A stretch of DNA of 64,000 nt from Ascidiella aspersa (Eukaryota): positions 14,012,001 through 14,076,000 of the forward strand of contig OZ004612.1 of NCBI GenBank assembly GCA_963924565.1, given 5' to 3'. Position numbers and translations under genes: made by a program. Below are positions 30,788 to 43,007 of this stretch, in pieces (position 1 is the first letter of the stretch; the number at the start of each line of letters is the position of its first letter). Below the pieces are notes generated by a model. The model was given only the letters and a program-made list of their open reading frames with translations. It was not told the origin of the DNA and did not search any database.

Positions 30788-30842
30788 TTAAGTTTTAACG
30801 AGGCTCGAAGCACTTGTAAGGGAAGTGGTTTAGCTAACTATT

Positions 30843-32731
30843 TTAAACCATTTTAATCAGCTCTGACTCCATTTCTTCAAGATTGTAGTAATCAGGTCCT
30901 GTTCCGCCAACGTATACAATTAAACCATCTTTAATAATGTAAAGCCGCTCAGGACTTGCTCCATAAGCCCAACACGCGTCATCAGACATGTTGTCAGCCA
31001 TGACCGGAACTGAGAGCTGGATGTCATTTTTGAATATATTAGCTGCTTTTAACCGCTCTTCAATGGTCCTGTGGTTATTAATGGTGTATTTATTTGTTTT
31101 TAAAAACCAGCCATCAGTTGGGTGAGCCTCTCGTATGTAGACGCTGACGAAATCTGCTACGGATTTGTGACGCTCGGCGATTTTGCCGAAGTCTTTTGCC
31201 TGAAATGAGACCAGTTTGCTTATACAGTACTTTATTTTGTCGGTTATTTGCCATTTAAAATAAGGTAGTCGGATAATGACAAATCTTATAACGTATTGAT
31301 AACGTCATTGGGTATCACTATAGTAATGACGTCATTGGGTATCCGGGTGCTGCAGTACTTTTTGCTTGGAATATAAGGAATCGGAAGCGGAAAAAATACG
31401 AAAAAAATACTTACAGATTTCGCATCATTGTTTGCTTCTAACTTAAAACAAAAATTTATTATAAAATCTAGACAACCACGAAGTGCCTGCGGTCCCGAGG
31501 CAACTATTGCGATAAATCCTGTTTTAGTAGCCCTGGGTGTTTCACAATATTAAAAGAAAACGCCACTCAACTGGACATAAGAGGACCAGGGAATTTATAT
31601 TATAAAATGTACCAGAAACATGGCTTGAGGAACATGGTCTAGTGCCCCCACCCAGGTTCAGCCCTTAAAAAAGACCAGTTTGACAGCACTGTTCAATATG
31701 CAGCCTATAGTTTTCGTCGTTTCACAATATCAGAAAGAGGGGGAAAATTCATATTACTAAGGAGAATAGACTGTGTTAAAAAAATATTATGTGGCAGTCA
31801 CAGTAAAAAGTAGTTTAAAAAGAAACTCATCTAAACTTCATTTTATATGTAGATATATTAAATAGTTTATTTTCTGAGTTAGTCCTTCGCGCCCCCTTGC
31901 AAAGCCTTCACGACCCCCAACCCTCCAGGAAAGCGCGCCCTCTAGCCAACAATCCCCGATCTGTCCAACTATGTTTTGTCAAAAATTGTCCATTAATCTT
32001 GGAAATTAAGCAAGTACCTCTTTCTAAAGGACTGTGGATAATTTGGAAAATTTAAATTATGAGTGGACAAACCGTCTATTACGCCAATTATAAAGTTGGT
32101 GACGTATAAAAAATTCTATCGTTAATACATTGCTATATAAGTTTCCAATCAGAGGCTTACCTTTGCCATAAACGGGGGTCAGGAAGAGGATCCGAAGTTA
32201 ATAACAAGCGGACGATTCATCTTAACTAGATCAAATATCGAGCAATATTTTCTGCTTTCCGTGGAATAAAGCTTAACGTTTGGGGGATTTTTGCCAATGT
32301 TAGCTTCTTTCGTAAGATCTGCAATTACTTCCTTAAACACTTCAGAAAGCGCTTCCGGCTGAAAAAAAAGTACGGTAATATTGGTCTATAATCAATTTAA
32401 ATCATTAGTTTTATACAGTAGGCCTATAAATAAAAACAATACAGGTACGGTTCCTTTTCTTTTCGACAGTAAATGTTAAAAAAATTTAACATTATAATTT
32501 GGTATTCTGTCTACATATCACTTTTTTTTACTTTTTACAAATTTTAGCTTTTGAAAATCTTACCGAGAAAAACCTTTCCCTTGTGGCATCACAGTCACCT
32601 GCAATGTTCAACAACCCAACTTTAAAACAAAGAATCGTCATCAAATCATGTACAGCAAATCTCGTCATGGTTATTCCAGTTCTTACCATTGCAATACAAA
32701 AAACGCAGATGTATCGAAACAAGTTAGTCAT
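30843..32731 (-). CDS. Iodothyronine deiodinase-family selenoprotein, copy A (240 aa, 3 exons)
   Basis: Exons 32731-32564, 32358-32161, 31199-30843, all phase 0. Hydrophobic N-terminus; RPLVINFGSSSUPPF with TGA at 32181-32179; VYIREAHPTDGW, NHRTIEER, DNM...AYGASPERLYII. SECIS downstream. No DIO1/2/3 orthology assigned. Confidence 0.95.
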
Positions 32732-34082: not shown

Positions 34083-35920
34083 TTAGACTTTATTAACCAT
34101 TTTAGCCAACTCCGATTCCATTTCGTCAGGATTATAATGGAAAGGTCCCTCACCGCCAACGTATGCAATTACGCCATCTTTGATAATGTAAAGCCGTTCA
34201 GGAACTGCACCATAAGCGCGACACGCGTCATCAGACATGTTGTCAACCATGACCGGAACTGAGAGTTTGACGTCATTTTTGAACATATTAGCTGCCTTTA
34301 ACCGCTCTTCAATGGTCCTGTGGTTGTTAATGGTGTATTTATTTGTTTTGAGGACCCAGCCTTCAGTTGGGTGAGCCTCTCTTATGTAGACATTGACGAA
34401 ATCTGCTACAGAATTGTTTCGCTCAACGATTTTTGCAAAGTCTTTCATCTATGAAAAATGTTTACATTTTAAATGAACTGAATTGGCAATCTTTCGCGAT
34501 CCTATTACGTAAGATAAGCCTGACACTTTTTTATAAACGCGAAAATATACGCGAAAGAAAAAAGTTAATAACGTTATTTGACACATGGAGTCGAACCGTT
34601 TGACTTTTCCGGTTCAGGATCGGTTTGCGTTAAGGGTTTTTTTCAAAATCTGGTTCGAAAAAAAATAATTTCATTATTGAGGCAATGCTTGGAAGCAACA
34701 GTATATTTAATAAAACAGTTCTATTTCACGGCCGCCAGGAAAAGTTACGTCATAAAACAATTAATCCTAAAACATATGCTGTTCAACAAACTTAAAAATT
34801 GCAACTAGAATCCAGTCTAGTCGCGCAAGGCGCAAAATATCTAGCGTTTTATTGTTTACTTTAATGTAACCTAACGTTTAATATTTGCCCAAGTAAACGA
34901 ACCATAAATATTTGTACGACTTACATTAATTTAAAGATTAACCTACACAGTACAAAAAGTGTTATCAAATCAAAGTTATTCTGTGCTTTGTCATTTGTAA
35001 GTTACACATTTTTTGGATTTTTTTCATTACGAACAGTTATGTAATACTTGCAAACTTGAATTAATGATTAGGCTTAGACTTAAAACTTGACCGGCTTTAA
35101 ATATATAAGTTCTGGCACGATAGAGCTGAAACCTGGCCAGTTCGTCTTATCGAAGTATCAGAGTTCACCAAATTTATTCCACCACACATACACTGTACAT
35201 TCACCGAAACACAGTACAAAAATTTAGGTACAGTATAACCGTATAACGCTTAAAAATATATACGGATTTTATTACCTTTGCCATGTACGGAGGTCAGGAA
35301 CAGGATCCGAAGTTAAGTACCAGTGGGCGATTTTTCTTTACTAGATCAAGCAATCGACAATATTTGTCGCTTTCCATCGAGTAGAGTTCAACATTGGGGG
35401 CGGGTTTTCCAAGTTTTGCCTCTTTGCCTAGTTGGTATTTTCTCACATTGAAGACTTGCGAAACGGCTCTCCACTATCAAGTAAGCAAAATATTCGATGA
35501 TATTGAGTTATGCATGACCATTACAACCTTATACATGGCCATCATAAGCTCATAACGGGAGCCCATTTACTTCAGCCTACAGTGAATTTATTTTTAGTTT
35601 TTATTATAATTAAAGGCTATGTAAACCAGTTAGTTAGGGTTTTTCATACATTATATAGTTTTGTCTTTTACCACTATAAATAAACAATGTCATTGGAATG
35701 TAGTACGTTGAGGGCACTACGTTCCAAATTGCTCTTGGTAGGCTACTATACCCACCGACAAAAAAATTTCCTCAGCGCCAACAAAGTTGCTGGAAACATA
35801 ACCGAGCAATTTTCCAACGCCCAAAATCACTAACAAATCGTGTGCAGCCAACAGAGAGATGACTATTGCAGCTCTTAACGTCGCAAGGCAAAGGACATAG
35901 ATGTTTTTAAGCACATTCAT
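34083..35920 (-). CDS. Iodothyronine deiodinase-family selenoprotein, copy B (242 aa, 3 exons)
   Basis: Exons 35920-35756 (donor GTGGGT), 35473-35276, 34448-34083. RPLVLNFGSCSUPPY with TGA at 35296-35294; VYIREAHPTEGW; YGAVPERLYII; GPFHY. Same intron positions as copy A. Confidence 0.95.
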
Positions 35921-37985
35921 CTTCTAGCACAAATGTGTGCTCTAACCTTTCAATCCTGTTTCAACCACTCAGCTTTGCAAATACACGATCATTCTAGATT
36001 ACGAGTATCGCAGGTAACCTATAGTTAAAGTTTAACATAACCCAGGATATTGACAGAGTGTCGAGTTTGCTTTGTAAAGGGTTCTTTCATCGAACCTTCG
36101 AACGACATAACACTTTTTAAAGTGTCTTTTTTACCTGATTGTTTTGGTACAGCAAAAAGAAAATGAGTGTTGTTTTGTTGTCCTGTTTATATTTTTTATC
36201 TTTGACCTATTTTTTGGTCAGTTGTCACCTAACAATCCTTGATTACTTTAGCGATAGAAGCGTGTACGTGTTTCTAGATCTAGAGCGTCTGGTTTTTACA
36301 CGTTCCTTTTTGTAGGCGATAAAAATACCTGTCCCTATACAACTTTTTTAACTCTAGGCATAGTTACCACAGTTGATTTGATAATGCTCGGTGAGTACAT
36401 TGACAATGTCTTATCACATGCGATAAGCTAAAACGGCGATTCAAGCCGCCAGTACAGTGGTTCCAAAACTTGTTTTACCTTGCGGTTTTGTTTCTTAAAA
36501 TAATGGCGGACCCCTTTATTGTTTAAAACAGCGAAACTTGGCATTTTAATGTACATTACTTAACATTTACTTATCGGGAACAAGTTGATAAAGGATTTAT
36601 TACCATTTAAATTCAAAGAAGTAAAAATTCTTCAGAGTAATATAACTTGTCGGCCTATTAAATAAGAGGTGTTGTGTGGACCCCTTCAAACTTTCTCACA
36701 GTGTAAAGCAGAATAAAGTAGAATGGAAGAGTATTGGACCCGAACAGCACAGATCGCTCGCTTTGGGTATTGGTCACACCTCAGTGGATACCGGTCACGT
36801 GCGTTTTACGTCACGCAAGGCAGTGTCAATGAATTACTGCAAGCGAATGTTACAATAAACTTAGCACTGCCACTGTATCCGTCTTACAGACAAAGATAAA
36901 ACCAGGATAACTAGCACATAGAGTTGTCCGATACTTGACATTTTATTCAGAAACCCGATGTTTTGCACAAAATATGTCGCGATTTTATCTGATGTCAAAC
37001 GGGTTATTGTTAAGCTCGAACAAGCAAACTGGAAGAAAAAAATACGTGCAAAGACAGTTTTGTAAGGATTTCGGGTCAACTTTGCCTTAGTAATAAGAAG
37101 ATTAGTTACCTCAAGTTTTATTAACCTATTATTTTTATCTTAAAACGATAATTTGTCAAAAAATATTTGGTTAGCAAAACCTTGAGGCAACTGATCTACT
37201 TCGCACTAAGGAAGAGTTGGCCCCAAACCCTAACTTGGCATCGGGTTTCGGTTCCGATACTTGCATTTTGTATCATCCAAGTATTATTTTGATTAACCCT
37301 TTTAATGGTATTGTGTATATTTACCATTCGTTCAACTGCAAAACGCCACAGTTTCTATGAAATCAGACTTGGACAAACTGCGGCCAGCCAAGCAATTTAA
37401 TCCGGTCCGCGGCTCATTTTCATAAAACTTTGTTTGGGTAACATTTTTTATCTAATTTACTTTATAATTTTTTATTGAATAAATGACACTTGTAAGGAAA
37501 CCTCACTTTTCCTACTCTCACTACCTGTAAAAACGATGCTTTTTACGCCACTTTTAAAAAATGACTACACTTTATAATTTTTCATATGCTACATTTAACC
37601 CAGCCCCCAAGACTTTTTTATTCTCATGCGACGCCCTGTCAAAATAAGCGCCCAATCCTGGACTAGACTTAAAGTGGTGATAAATAATCTAGCGCATCGA
37701 TATTTTTCCTTTATATTTAAAGGCACAAACTGCTGCTGAAATTGTATATTAAAAATACCCTAAAGAGTTAAATAAATGTAAACTAAGAATCAGACAACCT
37801 ACCTCAACATAGCATTTGTTTTTAGAAACATTTTTATATTATTTTCCTAAAAAAACAACATTTTTTTGTATTATACTTTTATTCTGTTTTTATGTGTCTA
37901 CATCTGGCTGGATAATAAACTACTCAATGATAGATACTTAAAAAATTGTTAATGTGTTTAAGAATAATGTAATCTCTAACAATGT

Positions 37986-38194
37986 GTACACCGAAAGCCA
38001 TCGCAGACGCACTGAATCTGTCGATTAATGATGCAAGCAGGGTAGGCTAGAAAAACAACTAGCATCATTAATCGACAGATTCGGTGATGGCTTGAGGTGT
38101 ACTCATGATCCATAAGCCGTAATCGTTGGTCACAAAGCAGCAGAAGGGCTATATCACAGTTGTTAACAGACATATATGTGTGCATGTTTTATTG
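37986..38194 (+). mobile_element. SINE copy (same family as 41309-41624) with a 5' inverted duplication
   Basis: TSD AATCTCTAACAATGT/AATCTCTAATAATGT (37971-37985, 38195-38209). Body aligns with the 41309 copy (AAGCCGTAATCGTTGGTCA...GGGCTA.ATCACAG.TGTTA). Confidence 0.8.
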
Positions 38195-38683
38195 AATCTC
38201 TAATAATGTGTTCATCTATATTACTTTTACTAGACACTCTTCCTGATCCTTATTCTCACGGTCTTTCTTGTAGCTTAGGTGTTTCTGGTCACGAAGCAAA
38301 CCATTTGCTTTAATACAACTTAACCTTGCGACGGAAAATAGACGGCAAAAACGGTGTAGGCCTACAGCAGTTTGGAGAATATTTATAGCTTTGATTTCCA
38401 GTAACAGGCTGAAGCACCGTTGCTCAGCTATATCCCTAACCCTCTTGAGGGCCGCTGGGCGAAAGTGTGATTTATAACTTAACTAACTTGATTAGCAAAT
38501 ACATTTATGCAAAAAAATAATAAGCAAATACTATATTGGATAACTGCATTGGTGCGCGTTAACAACAAATAAAAATATTGATTTTAGTAGACTTCGCGGA
38601 TCGGTTACCATTTCCGTCGACAGTAGAAGAGAAACAAAAGCAGTTCAAAGCATTTTTGGAATTTAGGTGCACTGTCAGTTGGT

Positions 38684-40534
38684 CTATTCCATCCCAGTTG
38701 TTTCGTTGGAACTACACAAGCCACTAAACCACGATTTCGTCTTTGGTTTGTTCTTGAAACGAGGCGATTTCGGATTGCCCCACCCTGGTTGCACATTCTT
38801 TGTACGAATAAGATCTAAAGCGGCAGGTTTTTGATAAGAATTAAACGCTTCTGGCGGAGGAGCCGGAAAATCGTAACCAGAACACCGACTTTCAGAAGAT
38901 TGGCTTTCCACCTCAGCTTCATCCGAAGGATTATTTTGTTTTGCTTCCTCAATTTTATCTGACGACTCACGTTCACTAGTCTGGTCAGATTCATGATTTA
39001 GTTCTTTTGTTGATTCTATCATTTCTTCATTTTTTTGTTCAGAATTGTCAGCTTGAGTTTTGTGCTGAGTTTGTTCTGCGTTTTCCGATAAAGCGTCATC
39101 GTTTTCTTGCGATGACTCTTTATTATCAATCACGTTTTCGTCATTTTGAATATCATTGTTTCTATCGTCCGAACTTTTGTCCAGCGTTTGGCTCGTTAAA
39201 AATACACCGGGGGTTTTAGTTTGCTCTATAGATTCGGTATTTTCATCCTTTTGCAGTTGTTCATCAACAATTTCGTAACTTTTCTCTTCTGGTTCGACTG
39301 CATTAGTAATTTGATCATCGGGTTCTGTTGGTTGAGCTACATCAGTAATTTGATCATTCACTCCTGTTGGTTCAACTGCATCAGTAATTTGATCATTCAC
39401 TCCTGTTGGTTCAACTGCATCAGTAATTTGATCATTCACTGCTGTTGGTTCAACTGCATCAGTAATTTGATCATCGAGTTTTGTTGGTTCAGTTGCATCA
39501 GTAATTTGATCATTCACTCCTGTTTGTTCAACTACATCAGTCATTTGATAATTGACTCCTGTTTGTTCAACTGCATCAGTAATTTGATCGTTCACTCCTA
39601 TTGGTTCAACTGCATCAGTAATTTGATCATTCACTCCTGTTGGTTCAGCTGCATCAGTAATTTGATCATTCACTCCTGTTGGTTCAACTGCATCAGTAAT
39701 TTGATCATTCACTCCTGTTTGTTCAACTGCATCAGTAATTTGATCATTCACTCCTGTTGGTTCAACTGCATCAGTAATTTGATCATTCACTCCTGTTTGT
39801 TCAACTGCATCAGTAATTTGATCATTCACTCCTGTTGGTTCAACTGCATCAGTAATTTGATCATTCACTCCTGTTTGTTCAACTGCATCAGTAATTTGAT
39901 CGTTCACTCCTGTTGGTTCAACTGCATCAGTAATTTGTTCATCGAGTTTTGTTGGTTCAGCTGCATCAGTAATTTGATCATTCACTCCTGTTTGTTCAAC
40001 TGCATCAGTAATTTGATCATTCACTCCTGTTGGTTCAACTGCATCAGTAATTTGATCATTGATTCCTGTTTGTTCAACTGCATCATTAATTTGATCATTG
40101 ACTGCTGCTGGTTTAGCTATATCATTAATTTGATCATTGACTGCTGTTGGTTCAACTGCATCAGTAATTTGATCGTTAAGTGCAGTTGGTTCAATTGCAT
40201 CAGTAATTTGATTGCTGTTTGCTGTTGATTCAGCTACCTTAGTCACTTGATTGTTGGGTACTTCGGCTTCAATTGCACCAGTTTCTTGAGTGCTCATCGT
40301 TGTCTCGGGTATTGCAACCGTTGGTGCGACGAGAGTTTGTTCGACGTCTTCACCAAGTGAACTTTCAAAGGTCTTGAGCGCATCTTCTGTGCTGTTGTCG
40401 TTCATCAAAATAACACAGGTTTCAGTGCCATTCACGTCGACTTTAATGTCACTATCGCTTGGTGCATTTGAATCTAGTTCTACCCAAACTTGCTCCAACA
40501 ATGGGCCTGCATTAACGTTAATCGTTTCATCCAT
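38684..40534 (-). CDS. Acidic, probably disordered protein (616 aa) with about 24 tandem 13-aa repeats
   Basis: Uninterrupted ORF from ATG 40534, with long non-repetitive coding flanks on both sides of the array. Repeat consensus NDQITDAVE(P/Q)TGV; basic C-terminal tail. Family not recognised. Confidence 0.8.
   Translation of the reverse strand: MDETINVNAGPLLEQVWVELDSNAPSDSDIKVDVNGTETCVILMNDNSTEDALKTFESSLGEDVEQTLVAPTVAIPETTMSTQETGAIEAEVPNNQVTKVAESTANSNQITDAIEPTALNDQITDAVEPTAVNDQINDIAKPAAVNDQINDAVEQTGINDQITDAVEPTGVNDQITDAVEQTGVNDQITDAAEPTKLDEQITDAVEPTGVNDQITDAVEQTGVNDQITDAVEPTGVNDQITDAVEQTGVNDQITDAVEPTGVNDQITDAVEQTGVNDQITDAVEPTGVNDQITDAAEPTGVNDQITDAVEPIGVNDQITDAVEQTGVNYQMTDVVEQTGVNDQITDATEPTKLDDQITDAVEPTAVNDQITDAVEPTGVNDQITDAVEPTGVNDQITDVAQPTEPDDQITNAVEPEEKSYEIVDEQLQKDENTESIEQTKTPGVFLTSQTLDKSSDDRNNDIQNDENVIDNKESSQENDDALSENAEQTQHKTQADNSEQKNEEMIESTKELNHESDQTSERESSDKIEEAKQNNPSDEAEVESQSSESRCSGYDFPAPPPEAFNSYQKPAALDLIRTKNVQPGWGNPKSPRFKNKPKTKSWFSGLCSSNETTGME
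39285..40215. repeat. Coding minisatellite, 39-bp unit, about 24 copies
   Basis: Unit CATCAGTAATTTGATCATTCACTCCTGTT(G/T)GTTCAACTG on the plus strand; P/Q variants alternate in the centre (78-bp higher-order unit). Confidence 0.95.
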
Positions 40535-41308
40535 TTTAACCCAAAACAAGATTATAGTTCAGTTTGTCAGAAATTATTACTGAATTACTGTCGCTTTGTC
40601 GTGATAATAACGCATTCAACAAAAGCTTTCTTATCGCCTTTCTGCGATGTATTGACGTTTTTGCTGTTGTCACAAACGTTGAAGAGGAAGTGTCGTATAC
40701 CGTCAGCCAGTGAAATAAAACGTTGTTTTGTTTTCGATGATTAACGACAAATAATGCCTGCAATGCTTTTTTATGCGGGCTTTAACTCCACTTGTCTTAC
40801 TTAATCAATTATTATAATTATCAAATAGGCCTACTACGGTTACTAAGCCACAAGGAAAATTACTTTATATAAGAATGTAGGCTACACAGTGATTCAGAGC
40901 GTATATACGTTTTGCTAGAAAAGCACTGGACTTGCTTGTAAAAGCGCACTGTAGAAGCTCTAGTCTAGGTGACTGGTTCTTAACCTGGGAGTATTTACTT
41001 CAATTTGTTGAATTTCCAATGCTCTTTTGTTTGAATGTTATTAATTTGTTCGTAGGGGAAATATAATATTTTTGTTTTGGGGAGCGAGATGAACTTTTTT
41101 TAGGAATGACTTCACAAAGTTAAGTTATAGCGTGACGTCGTGAAAAAAGTTTTCTTTTTAAAGGAAATTCGTGAACAAAACACAGTTTAAGTCCAATCGA
41201 ATCACACCACGCGCAACATTACAAAACAAATTCATATGAATCAAATCACGATAGACCATCTAAACTGGTGGATAAATCTTTTTATAAAACGTAACCTATT
41301 TAAATCCA

Positions 41309-41624
41309 GTACACCGAAAAGCCATCGCAGACTCGCCGAATCTGTCGATCTATGATGCAAGCAGAGCAAGCCAGAAAAACAACTGGCCTGCAGTGAGGTT
41401 CGAACTCACGACCTCCGGTCAAGCCGGGTGAGTTCGAACCTCACTGCAGGCCAGTTGTTTTTCTGGCTTGCTCTGCTTGCATCATAGATCGACAGATTCG
41501 GCGAGTCTGCGATGGCTTTTCGGTGTACTATTGATACGGAAGCCGTAATCGTTGGTCATAAAGCAACTTCCGAGGGGCTAGATCACAGATGTTATTAAAC
41601 ACATATGTTTGTGTGTGTCTTTCA
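41309..41624 (+). mobile_element. tRNA-derived SINE with a perfect 101-bp 5' inverted duplication
   Basis: 13-bp TSD CTATTTAAATCCA (41296-41308, 41625-41637). Arms 41309-41409 and 41428-41528 are exact reverse complements. tRNA variable loop/T-arm and B-box AGGTC-GTGAG-TTCGAAC-CTCAC; TG-rich tail. Confidence 0.88.
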
Positions 41625-43007
41625 CTATTTAAATCCATTATGTAAAACCAGTGATTTTCGACCGTTGGTGTGTTGCACGAAAAATTTCTAAAATTAATTA
41701 ATTCCTTGTGGAACACCTGAAGATTCACAGAACATTTCACTTTGAATTGTTTAAGAGCGGCTGTAAAGGCCTCAGTTTACGGCGGAGCTTTCGTTGTGTG
41801 TTCAGTATTAACTTTAAAGTATCTAAACCTAAAAAAAACGAAAAGTTGACCAATTTTCGATACCCGCGAAATTTCACAACTGATATTTTACTATAAACTT
41901 GTTGGCACTAAAACATAGTTGTAAGGTTTGCAAGTGTGTAGCGCTTATTTTCCTAAAATTGAAATCCTGCTATATTTAAGATGTTTCGAGTCCACTAAAT
42001 GTTAATTTGTTTGATCTCATGTAACACTGTTTTTTTTTTATATTTTCTAATTTTATTTGGCATTATCAAAATTAGCCACTATTGTTACTTCTTAATGATA
42101 ATAACGATTAAACACTCTGTAAAAGCAAATTGTTCGCAGCGCTTTTAGCGTCAGGTGTTACGCTGCGACTACTAAAATGTCATCATGTCGTTACGTATAT
42201 ATAAGGCTCTTGTGTCAGCGACGTGATGTCTTATGGCGTGGACATATCAGCAACAGAATTGCGAATATTATTTACAAGCTGCCATTTTTTTTTAGTTTAA
42301 TGCAGCAAACTAATTGTATTCCTTTCAGTTGACTGTATTGTAGCTTTAGTGGGGTGAACATTTGTAGAAAAGGGGCAAACTATTTACAACTTAATCAAAT
42401 CCAGTCAATCTATTTAAATTATCCCGTCATACAGACAGTATTCATGAATATTTTTAGTTGGTTACATAGTTGACCATCATGAACAACTTAATACAAACAA
42501 CTTGTCTTTTATTACATTTTCTGTAGAAACAACAAGTTAATATGTACAGTAAAAAATGGCAAAAATGGTACAAATTGCAAACAAAGGGTATATGTAAGGT
42601 AATGATGATATCCAATCTAGATTTGTATGCTCGAAATACAAAAAATACCGCATACGAAAACACCAGGGGGGTGGGGCAAATTCAGTTAGGGGACGGGACC
42701 ATGACCTCTTCCAAAGTATATAGCTGTGGGTTGCAACCCGTAGAAAATATAAAGCTATACTTTAACACAAATGAGAAAAATTTGCATTGCACGACTTCAA
42801 ATATACAAAGGTAGCGATTGTCTCAGCAAAAACTACAAGCAACTTACAAGATAAAAAAAACAACACTATTTTACGCTTCTTCTTGATCAGTCTCATGTAC
42901 GCTACATTTCAAATAAATCAAACAGACCCAAATTTCACCATCAGTGAGATTAGGAGTCTGTTAAACTTTTGCTAAATACATTTTTGAAAAACAAATCCGT
43001 AAGTATT

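Follow-up and report, generated by a model that had tools for sequence, protein, structure and literature searches.

L1 twin priming is known to produce a clean inversion, and SINEs carry a tRNA head at a fixed 5' end. Other tRNA-related elements include SM-alpha of Schistosoma, a tandem repeat with a hammerhead whose ribozyme is active, and Cics-1 of Ciona, an abundant ascidian element of odd modular build. Tandem and inverted insertions with a 30–40-bp tail, often at one end, have been described for Penelope-like elements (PLEs; PMC8557442, PMC3846280), the origin of such insertions and of the one-sided tail being termed unresolved in PMC8557442, and circles have been proposed as templates of the tandems (PMC4209133). 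A purified lizard PLE cut and extended both target strands, with internal starts at two sites bounding the tail, and its priming was reported to proceed without target homology (PMC11167929). Animal non-LTR retrozymes, which are 150–450-bp tandem repeats with a hammerhead expressed as circles (PMC7229834), have been argued to be PLE derivatives (bioRxiv 10.64898/2026.07.22.740005). Inverted and tailed PLE insertions and PLE-dependent retrozymes are, in other words, already published.

The locus compared here with these systems lies in a window of 64,000 nt from the ascidian Ascidiella aspersa (contig OZ004612.1, positions 14,012,001–14,076,000) and comprises two hairpins, copy 1 and copy 2 (Table 1), both of which turned out to be pieces of a 348-nt repeat unit with an internal tRNA gene, numbered from the base following its 3' end A. 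The preliminary description had seen in them two independent SINE insertions with an inverted duplication starting at the same base. The independence was borne out by genuine TSDs of 13 bp and 15 bp (14/15 matching), and the common start by the minus arms of both copies, which end at unit 252–253, a position used genome-wide and not by chance. The perfect inverted arms of copy 1 (41308–41409 and 41428–41529), given as 101 bp, are indeed present, being 102 nt each and 100% complementary if one ambiguous base is counted, with 18 nt between them. Neither the B arm (121 nt against unit 253–133) nor the A arm (197 nt aligned) has a single mismatch to the unit, and the B arm presumably represents the second cDNA. 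The spacer is the reverse complement of unit 134–151 and, hence, the minus-strand continuation of the tRNA, as had been suggested. Copy 2 is shorter and decayed, as described, with ~79% identity to the young unit. The arms do co-vary within each copy, but the copy-1 state was found in 82 of 158 insertions (the copy-2 state in 2 of 158), so that in copy 1 it is simply the state of the subfamily.

Table 1. Coordinates of the features of the two insertions in the window
Feature	Position	Strand	Remarks
Left TSD, copy 2	37971–37985	+	14/15 bases match right TSD
B arm, copy 2	37986–38063	-	Older subfamily; unit 174–252
A arm, copy 2	38059–38194	+	Unit 200 to ~348; decayed; short internal deletion
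Right TSD, copy 2	38195–38209	+	
Left TSD, copy 1	41296–41308	+	13 bp, CTATTTAAATCCA
B arm, copy 1	41309–41428	-	Unit 133–252; start site B at left edge
Spacer, copy 1	41410–41427	-	Single-copy; unit 134–151, tRNA-like anticodon loop and variable region
A arm, copy 1	41428–41624	+	Unit 152–348; start site A at 3' end
tRNA-like domain, 3' part	41428–41451	+	T arm, B box, acceptor strand
T5 run	41458–41462	+	Just 3' of the tRNA; Pol III terminator-like
Probable decayed hammerhead	41507–41557	+	Stem II GGCTT 41514–41518 / AAGCC 41540–41544 kept; catalytic core broken
Internal start site B	41525–41530	+	Unit 249–254; loop of GGCTT/AAGCC stem; adjoins 11-mer
Start site A	41618–41624	+	Unit 348 / 1–2
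Right TSD, copy 1	41625–41637	+	CTATTTAAATCCA

No unit copies were detected in the 200 kb beside the window. In two deep public runs the contigs depart from the window sequence at 41295, right before the left TSD of copy 1, suggesting another allele; an empty allele of this site was not seen in the contigs of these two runs. Four public runs contained the unit without the window flanks, which is consistent with trace DNA, and horizontal transfer was not adopted as an explanation. An identification of the copy 1 hairpin as mir-499 was rejected, with Rfam scores far under the cut-off. Between the two insertions the minus strand (38684–40558) contains a 624-aa open frame with an acidic repeat of 39 bp (13 aa) in ~24 copies. 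Elsewhere in the window, a segment is duplicated with 86% identity (30841–31304 and 34090–34389) and includes a 153-aa frame, which we take to resemble the C-terminus of iodothyronine deiodinase.

When the right half of copy 1 was used to search the genome (75 contigs, 308.6 Mb), 2218 candidates were obtained; 40 of these were scored, most of them with 100% identity across 197 nt. The hairpin of copy 1 is one among hundreds of young insertions of the unit. Many of the copies stand head to tail with a period of 348 nt, the same unit being present at different loci, and 5'-truncated copies are typical, often in tandem and often inverted. The unit begins with a leader of 100 nt, followed by the tRNA cloverleaf (102–176), a T5 run and two domains with structure. 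Stops interrupt all six frames, the longest stop-free stretch being 86 aa, and the unit lacks the ORF with reverse transcriptase (RT) and GIY-YIG domains which is expected of an autonomous PLE. Its tRNA part, seen as the full cloverleaf in other copies, scored 54 bits with the Rfam tRNA model, which was the only Rfam match to the unit (no ribozyme was reported); ARAGORN also called a tRNA, and A and B boxes are present. This part aligns with the tandem tRNA-Met genes of the host together with their trailer, and T runs follow the host genes as well. Folded as a circle, the unit was more stable than its shuffles (z −4.7; minus strand z −3.8). The positions of old copies that differed from the young unit made up 8.4% of those covered in the tRNA part and 19.5% in the anticodon loop, 16% in the three flanking segments and 9.2% in the B domain.

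A large array of the tRNA-Met genes with a period of ~154 bp is located at 26.98–27.01 Mb of contig C1 (G000; L425–L432). The array motif has 205 same-strand matches genome-wide; some copies read CAC and were called tRNA-Val. A subfamily of 346 nt with a 2-nt deletion near unit 327–330 spreads beside the 348-nt form (L042, L059, L260, L408 and L409), and L334 (1971–2070 and 2928–2997) contains a sequence more distantly related to the tRNA part (80% identity over 101 nt), which may belong to a sister family.

The ends of the insertions were mapped in 158 flank-deduplicated cases out of 251 mapped groups, excluding the groups at a locus edge. Their sense 3' ends fall at two places in the unit ~95 nt apart, either at 348/1–6 (A) or at ~248–257 (B). 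The same was evident genome-wide: the exact A motif was not continued into the unit in 328 of 556 occurrences and the exact B motif in 297 of 654, as compared with seven control motifs after which the unit continued in 90–95% of the fetched cases. Since the samples were picked by exact motifs or best matches, they are biased to young copies with intact ends. Among the 99 insertions with at least 96% identity, referred to as young, 52 were direct, and these ended at A in 39 cases, at B in 12 and elsewhere in one. Site B therefore is a primary end and not a secondary twin-priming breakpoint of the LINE type, as had been thought, although its placement in the loop of the GGCTT/AAGCC stem was correct and the loop is a recurrent priming site. 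Sites A and B have an 11-mer in common on their downstream side. The TSDs measured 12–14 bp in 57 of the 99 young insertions, and in 18 none was found. Microhomology to the target averaged 1.6 nt at A and 2.4 nt at B against 0.4–0.5 in controls, values inflated by the way in which the TSD ends were called. No position on the unit could be assigned to 14 of 54 A ends and 7 of 43 B ends, and among these a short motif of 3–4 nt is occasionally reiterated. Microhomology together with reiteration at both outer ends would be expected if each DNA end had primed its own cDNA.

Almost half of the young insertions (46 of 99) were inverted, and their outer ends followed a rule: 41 combined A with B, none A with A, none B with B, and in the remaining five one end lay elsewhere. 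Because two earlier queries were biased to B-started copies, an extra sample was drawn on contig C1 from sites of the A and B motif lists (the B list covering up to 37.35 of 40.96 Mb). Of its 34 inverted insertions 29 were A+B, again with neither A+A nor B+B (P ~2e-9 under independent equal use), and in 30 older inverted copies A+B accounted for 25, A+A for one and other combinations for four. The inner junctions obeyed no such rule, as 46 different junction pairs were present in the 46 young inverted copies, which bears out the earlier claim that every insertion makes its duplication afresh. The two segments overlapped by 1–9 nt in 26 of 40 two-segment junctions, were blunt in five and had a gap in nine. 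The arms shared at least 30 unit positions in 39 of the 46 copies and none in four; with a range of 0–348, arms of ~100 bp are not the general case proposed before. The A arms stopped at B in 18 of 92 cases, against 9.3 expected from a smooth length model (P ~0.005, one of eight windows), as would fit two polymerases on a single RNA, the trailing one running into the other; stops of the B arms a little downstream of A (14/58 against 8.7, P ~0.05) were not significant after eight windows. In one inverted insertion (L268, 2129–2479; G000:C7, ~23.153 Mb) the A arm has its end at B, with a short piece matching unit 5–13 at the junction; the insertion spans almost exactly one full unit, as if the template had been switched between the shared 11-mers.

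Comparable structures were found in the PLEs of the same genome, which has many PLE families with hammerheads. RT and GIY-YIG domains were detected in two of the families and weakly in a third; the NCBIfam profiles gave weak generic RT matches and nothing else. The inverted insertions of five families combined one long with one short end in all 31 rows, which represent 29 distinct insertions since three rows are one duplicated insertion, and their TSDs were mostly 12–15 bp. The long and short ends were spaced by ~29–36 nt in three families and by 81–83 nt in two, so the 95 nt between the ends of the unit exceed the widest PLE spacing seen. One autonomous PLE (L283/L284; G000:C2, 30.628–30.641 Mb) forms a tandem (3422 bp, ~four units) with an inverted arm, and RT and GIY-YIG lie in different frames in these copies. 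A partnership of the unit with the L338 family, whose tail is alike by eye, was rejected, as its best score was reached by 64 of 1000 shuffles.

With the footprint of the unit being that of the PLEs in the same genome, the unit likely borrows their enzyme. From the two fixed ends, the A+B pairing, the TSDs, the tandem laps and the common footprint, all of which are observed, we infer a PLE enzyme as the driver, a sense-strand template and one shared RNA: the 348-nt unit is very likely a non-autonomous PLE parasite, inserted by target-primed reverse transcription that proceeds from both DNA ends, with two internal start sites on a single RNA. The PLE reverse transcriptase-endonuclease would nick both target strands ~13 bp apart, and each DNA end would then prime one cDNA, at A and at B of this one RNA. 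The two cDNAs would extend upstream across a common stretch, stop at random and be joined by microhomology of 1–4 nt, leaving head-to-head arms within one TSD, and priming from one end only would result in a direct copy ended at A or at B. A point against this reading is that the unit insertions have short microhomology, whereas in the lizard PLE assay priming was reported without target homology (PMC11167929).

As to the form of this RNA, we lean towards a monomeric circle which would be read repeatedly. The arrays are seamless, the longest among the best 40 candidates reaching ~12 laps, each within one insertion, copies have no fixed 5' start, and the stability of the circular fold (z −4.7) points the same way. 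At least one variant was present in every pass in 9 of 22 long arrays; in one of them a 2-nt insertion occupied 13 of 13 passes, the inverted arm included. Two variants private to one insertion occurred in 3/3 and 5/5 laps of shorter copies. Circle formation would, in the absence of a working ribozyme, need a host route, for which our guess would be the tRNA-processing enzymes. The pairing rule by itself is no proof of a circle, as autonomous PLEs follow the same rule. An alternative that we hold to be only somewhat less probable than an even chance is PLE two-site priming on linear multi-unit read-through transcripts, or seamless template jumps, with the arrays homogenised in DNA. It agrees with the multi-copy linear mRNA proposed for the lizard PLE, for which hammerhead cleavage was dispensable in vitro (PMC11167929), with a unit that has no working ribozyme to cut monomers, and with the variants confined to some of the passes in 7 of the 22 long arrays (alternating in one) and in two shorter copies; the laps of some old tandems also differ. 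Against a linear template stand those long arrays that have a variant of their own in every pass, since each of them would require its own homogeneous source of at least equal length. No longer source array was present among the best 40 candidates, in which ~12 units was the maximum, and the lack of a preferred 5' end also speaks against it.

The origin of the unit may be traced through the GGCTT/AAGCC stem, which aligns with hammerhead stem II of the young PLE family L370/L376 (presumably of the Poseidon clade, judging from motifs), both strands of the stem being identical. The sequence 3' of the core also matches this family, and in both the long end lies ~81 nt from the core G. The hammerhead core of the unit itself is broken. 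The similarity is modest: its score was reached by 14 of 2000 shuffles with the young unit and by 2 of 2000 with one older copy, after 14 families had been tried; a more favorable value for L370 (0/1000) was discarded because flanking DNA had been included, the true element sequence alone giving the 14/2000. A profile of the hammerhead region from a six-family clade did not match the unit. In L370/L376 the two ends are 29 nt apart and loop II, the location of B in the unit, is not used as a start. On balance, the stem region is a probable hammerhead relic, and the probable ancestor of the unit is a PLE pseudo-LTR in which the hammerhead died and a tRNA gene was captured. A hammerhead at CTGATGA (unit 15–21) was rejected, having no GAAA and no stem II and being lost in old copies. 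A fuller scenario, in which a tRNA cloverleaf took the place of the hammerhead and the 348-nt circle is cut and closed by tRNA-processing enzymes of the host, the dead hammerhead's loop becomes the second start and a PLE dimer copies the circle from both ends of the break, is speculative and in our opinion doubtful.

The initial interpretation, according to which a LINE mobilised a tRNA-headed SINE and the RNA structure directed twin priming to the stem loop, has become highly improbable. It would account for a tRNA with A and B boxes, for the TSDs and for a short TTCA reiteration at A, which we take to resemble a LINE-type tail. It is opposed by the use of B as the terminus of 12 of 52 young direct copies, by arms that reach multiple laps and mostly (39/46) have at least 30 positions in common, and by a footprint that matches the PLEs in full. 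Moreover, the tRNA lies inside a tandem unit and the 5' ends do not cluster at it (4 of 92 A arms and 1 of 58 B arms, against 4.4 and 3.9 expected); stops of the RT at tRNA modification sites (unit 120–155) were not in excess either (10/92 against 8.6 and 7/58 against 7.5). Even less credible is self-priming by fold-back, which has been proposed on an antisense template for PLE inverted repeats (PMC3846280), or a fold-back master copy, the alternative offered in the preliminary description: the perfect arms of young copies and the palindromes reported at PLE inverted junctions (PMC3846280) would fit it, but the 46 different inner junctions in 46 copies, with two unrelated 5' ends, the four copies without any shared position and the separate priming marks at both outer ends contradict it as a general explanation. 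An assembly artefact is the least probable of all, since, despite the fact that no contig of seven public runs spans the copy 1 hairpin, the latter has a 13-bp TSD and a single-copy spacer continuing the unit, and loci of like build with different inner junctions exist by dozens, decayed old copies among them.

The counts for the unit and for the five PLE families favour two primings on the sense strand, each DNA end using a start site of its own, and thereby connect genome structure with what PMC11167929 observed in vitro; the 348-nt template with its two mapped start sites is a substrate ready for the assay of that work. The unit furthermore suggests that PLEs have SINE-like, tRNA-bearing parasites lacking a working ribozyme. 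With 46 of 99 young insertions inverted, transcription across them would yield dsRNA. Neither a tRNA-bearing, ribozyme-dead PLE-dependent element nor end-pairing counts for PLE insertions were found in the accessible literature, which consisted mostly of open papers, without Repbase.

The EN+ PLEs (PMC8557442, PMC3846280, PMC11167929) share with the unit 5' truncation, partial tandems and an adjacent inverted truncated copy, as well as an extension at one end, AT-rich TSD targets, two internal RT starts and the extension of both strands. In contrast to them, the unit has no ORF, carries a tRNA gene and has an extension of ~95 nt rather than 30–40, but the extension also reached 81–83 nt in two autonomous PLE families of this genome, against 30–40 in the literature. 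The accessible parts of the same three papers call the PLE tail "often" or "optionally" one-ended and contain no count of one long with one short end. With the retrozymes the unit has in common a tandem non-coding repeat within 150–450 bp, strong self-pairing as a circle, TSDs above 4 bp and, as proposed, PLE dependence and a pseudo-LTR origin. It differs from them by having no intact type I hammerhead and by a near-perfect internal tRNA cloverleaf with a terminator; inverted insertions with two starts were not met in the accessible retrozyme texts (PMC7229834, bioRxiv 10.64898/2026.07.22.740005), and retrozymes are expressed as circular RNA, whereas the DNA evidence for circles of the unit is indirect. 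SM-alpha and Cics-1 are likened to the unit by description. Unlike the SINE-derived satellites (PMC10702118), which grow locally, the unit forms dispersed concatemers, each within one TSD. Finally, the unit resembles tRNA-derived SINEs in its A and B boxes, its non-coding nature, its TSDs and its inverted copies, and is distinguished from both SINEs and L1 twin priming by a tRNA that has no fixed place at the 5' end, two primary 3' ends and a long duplication.
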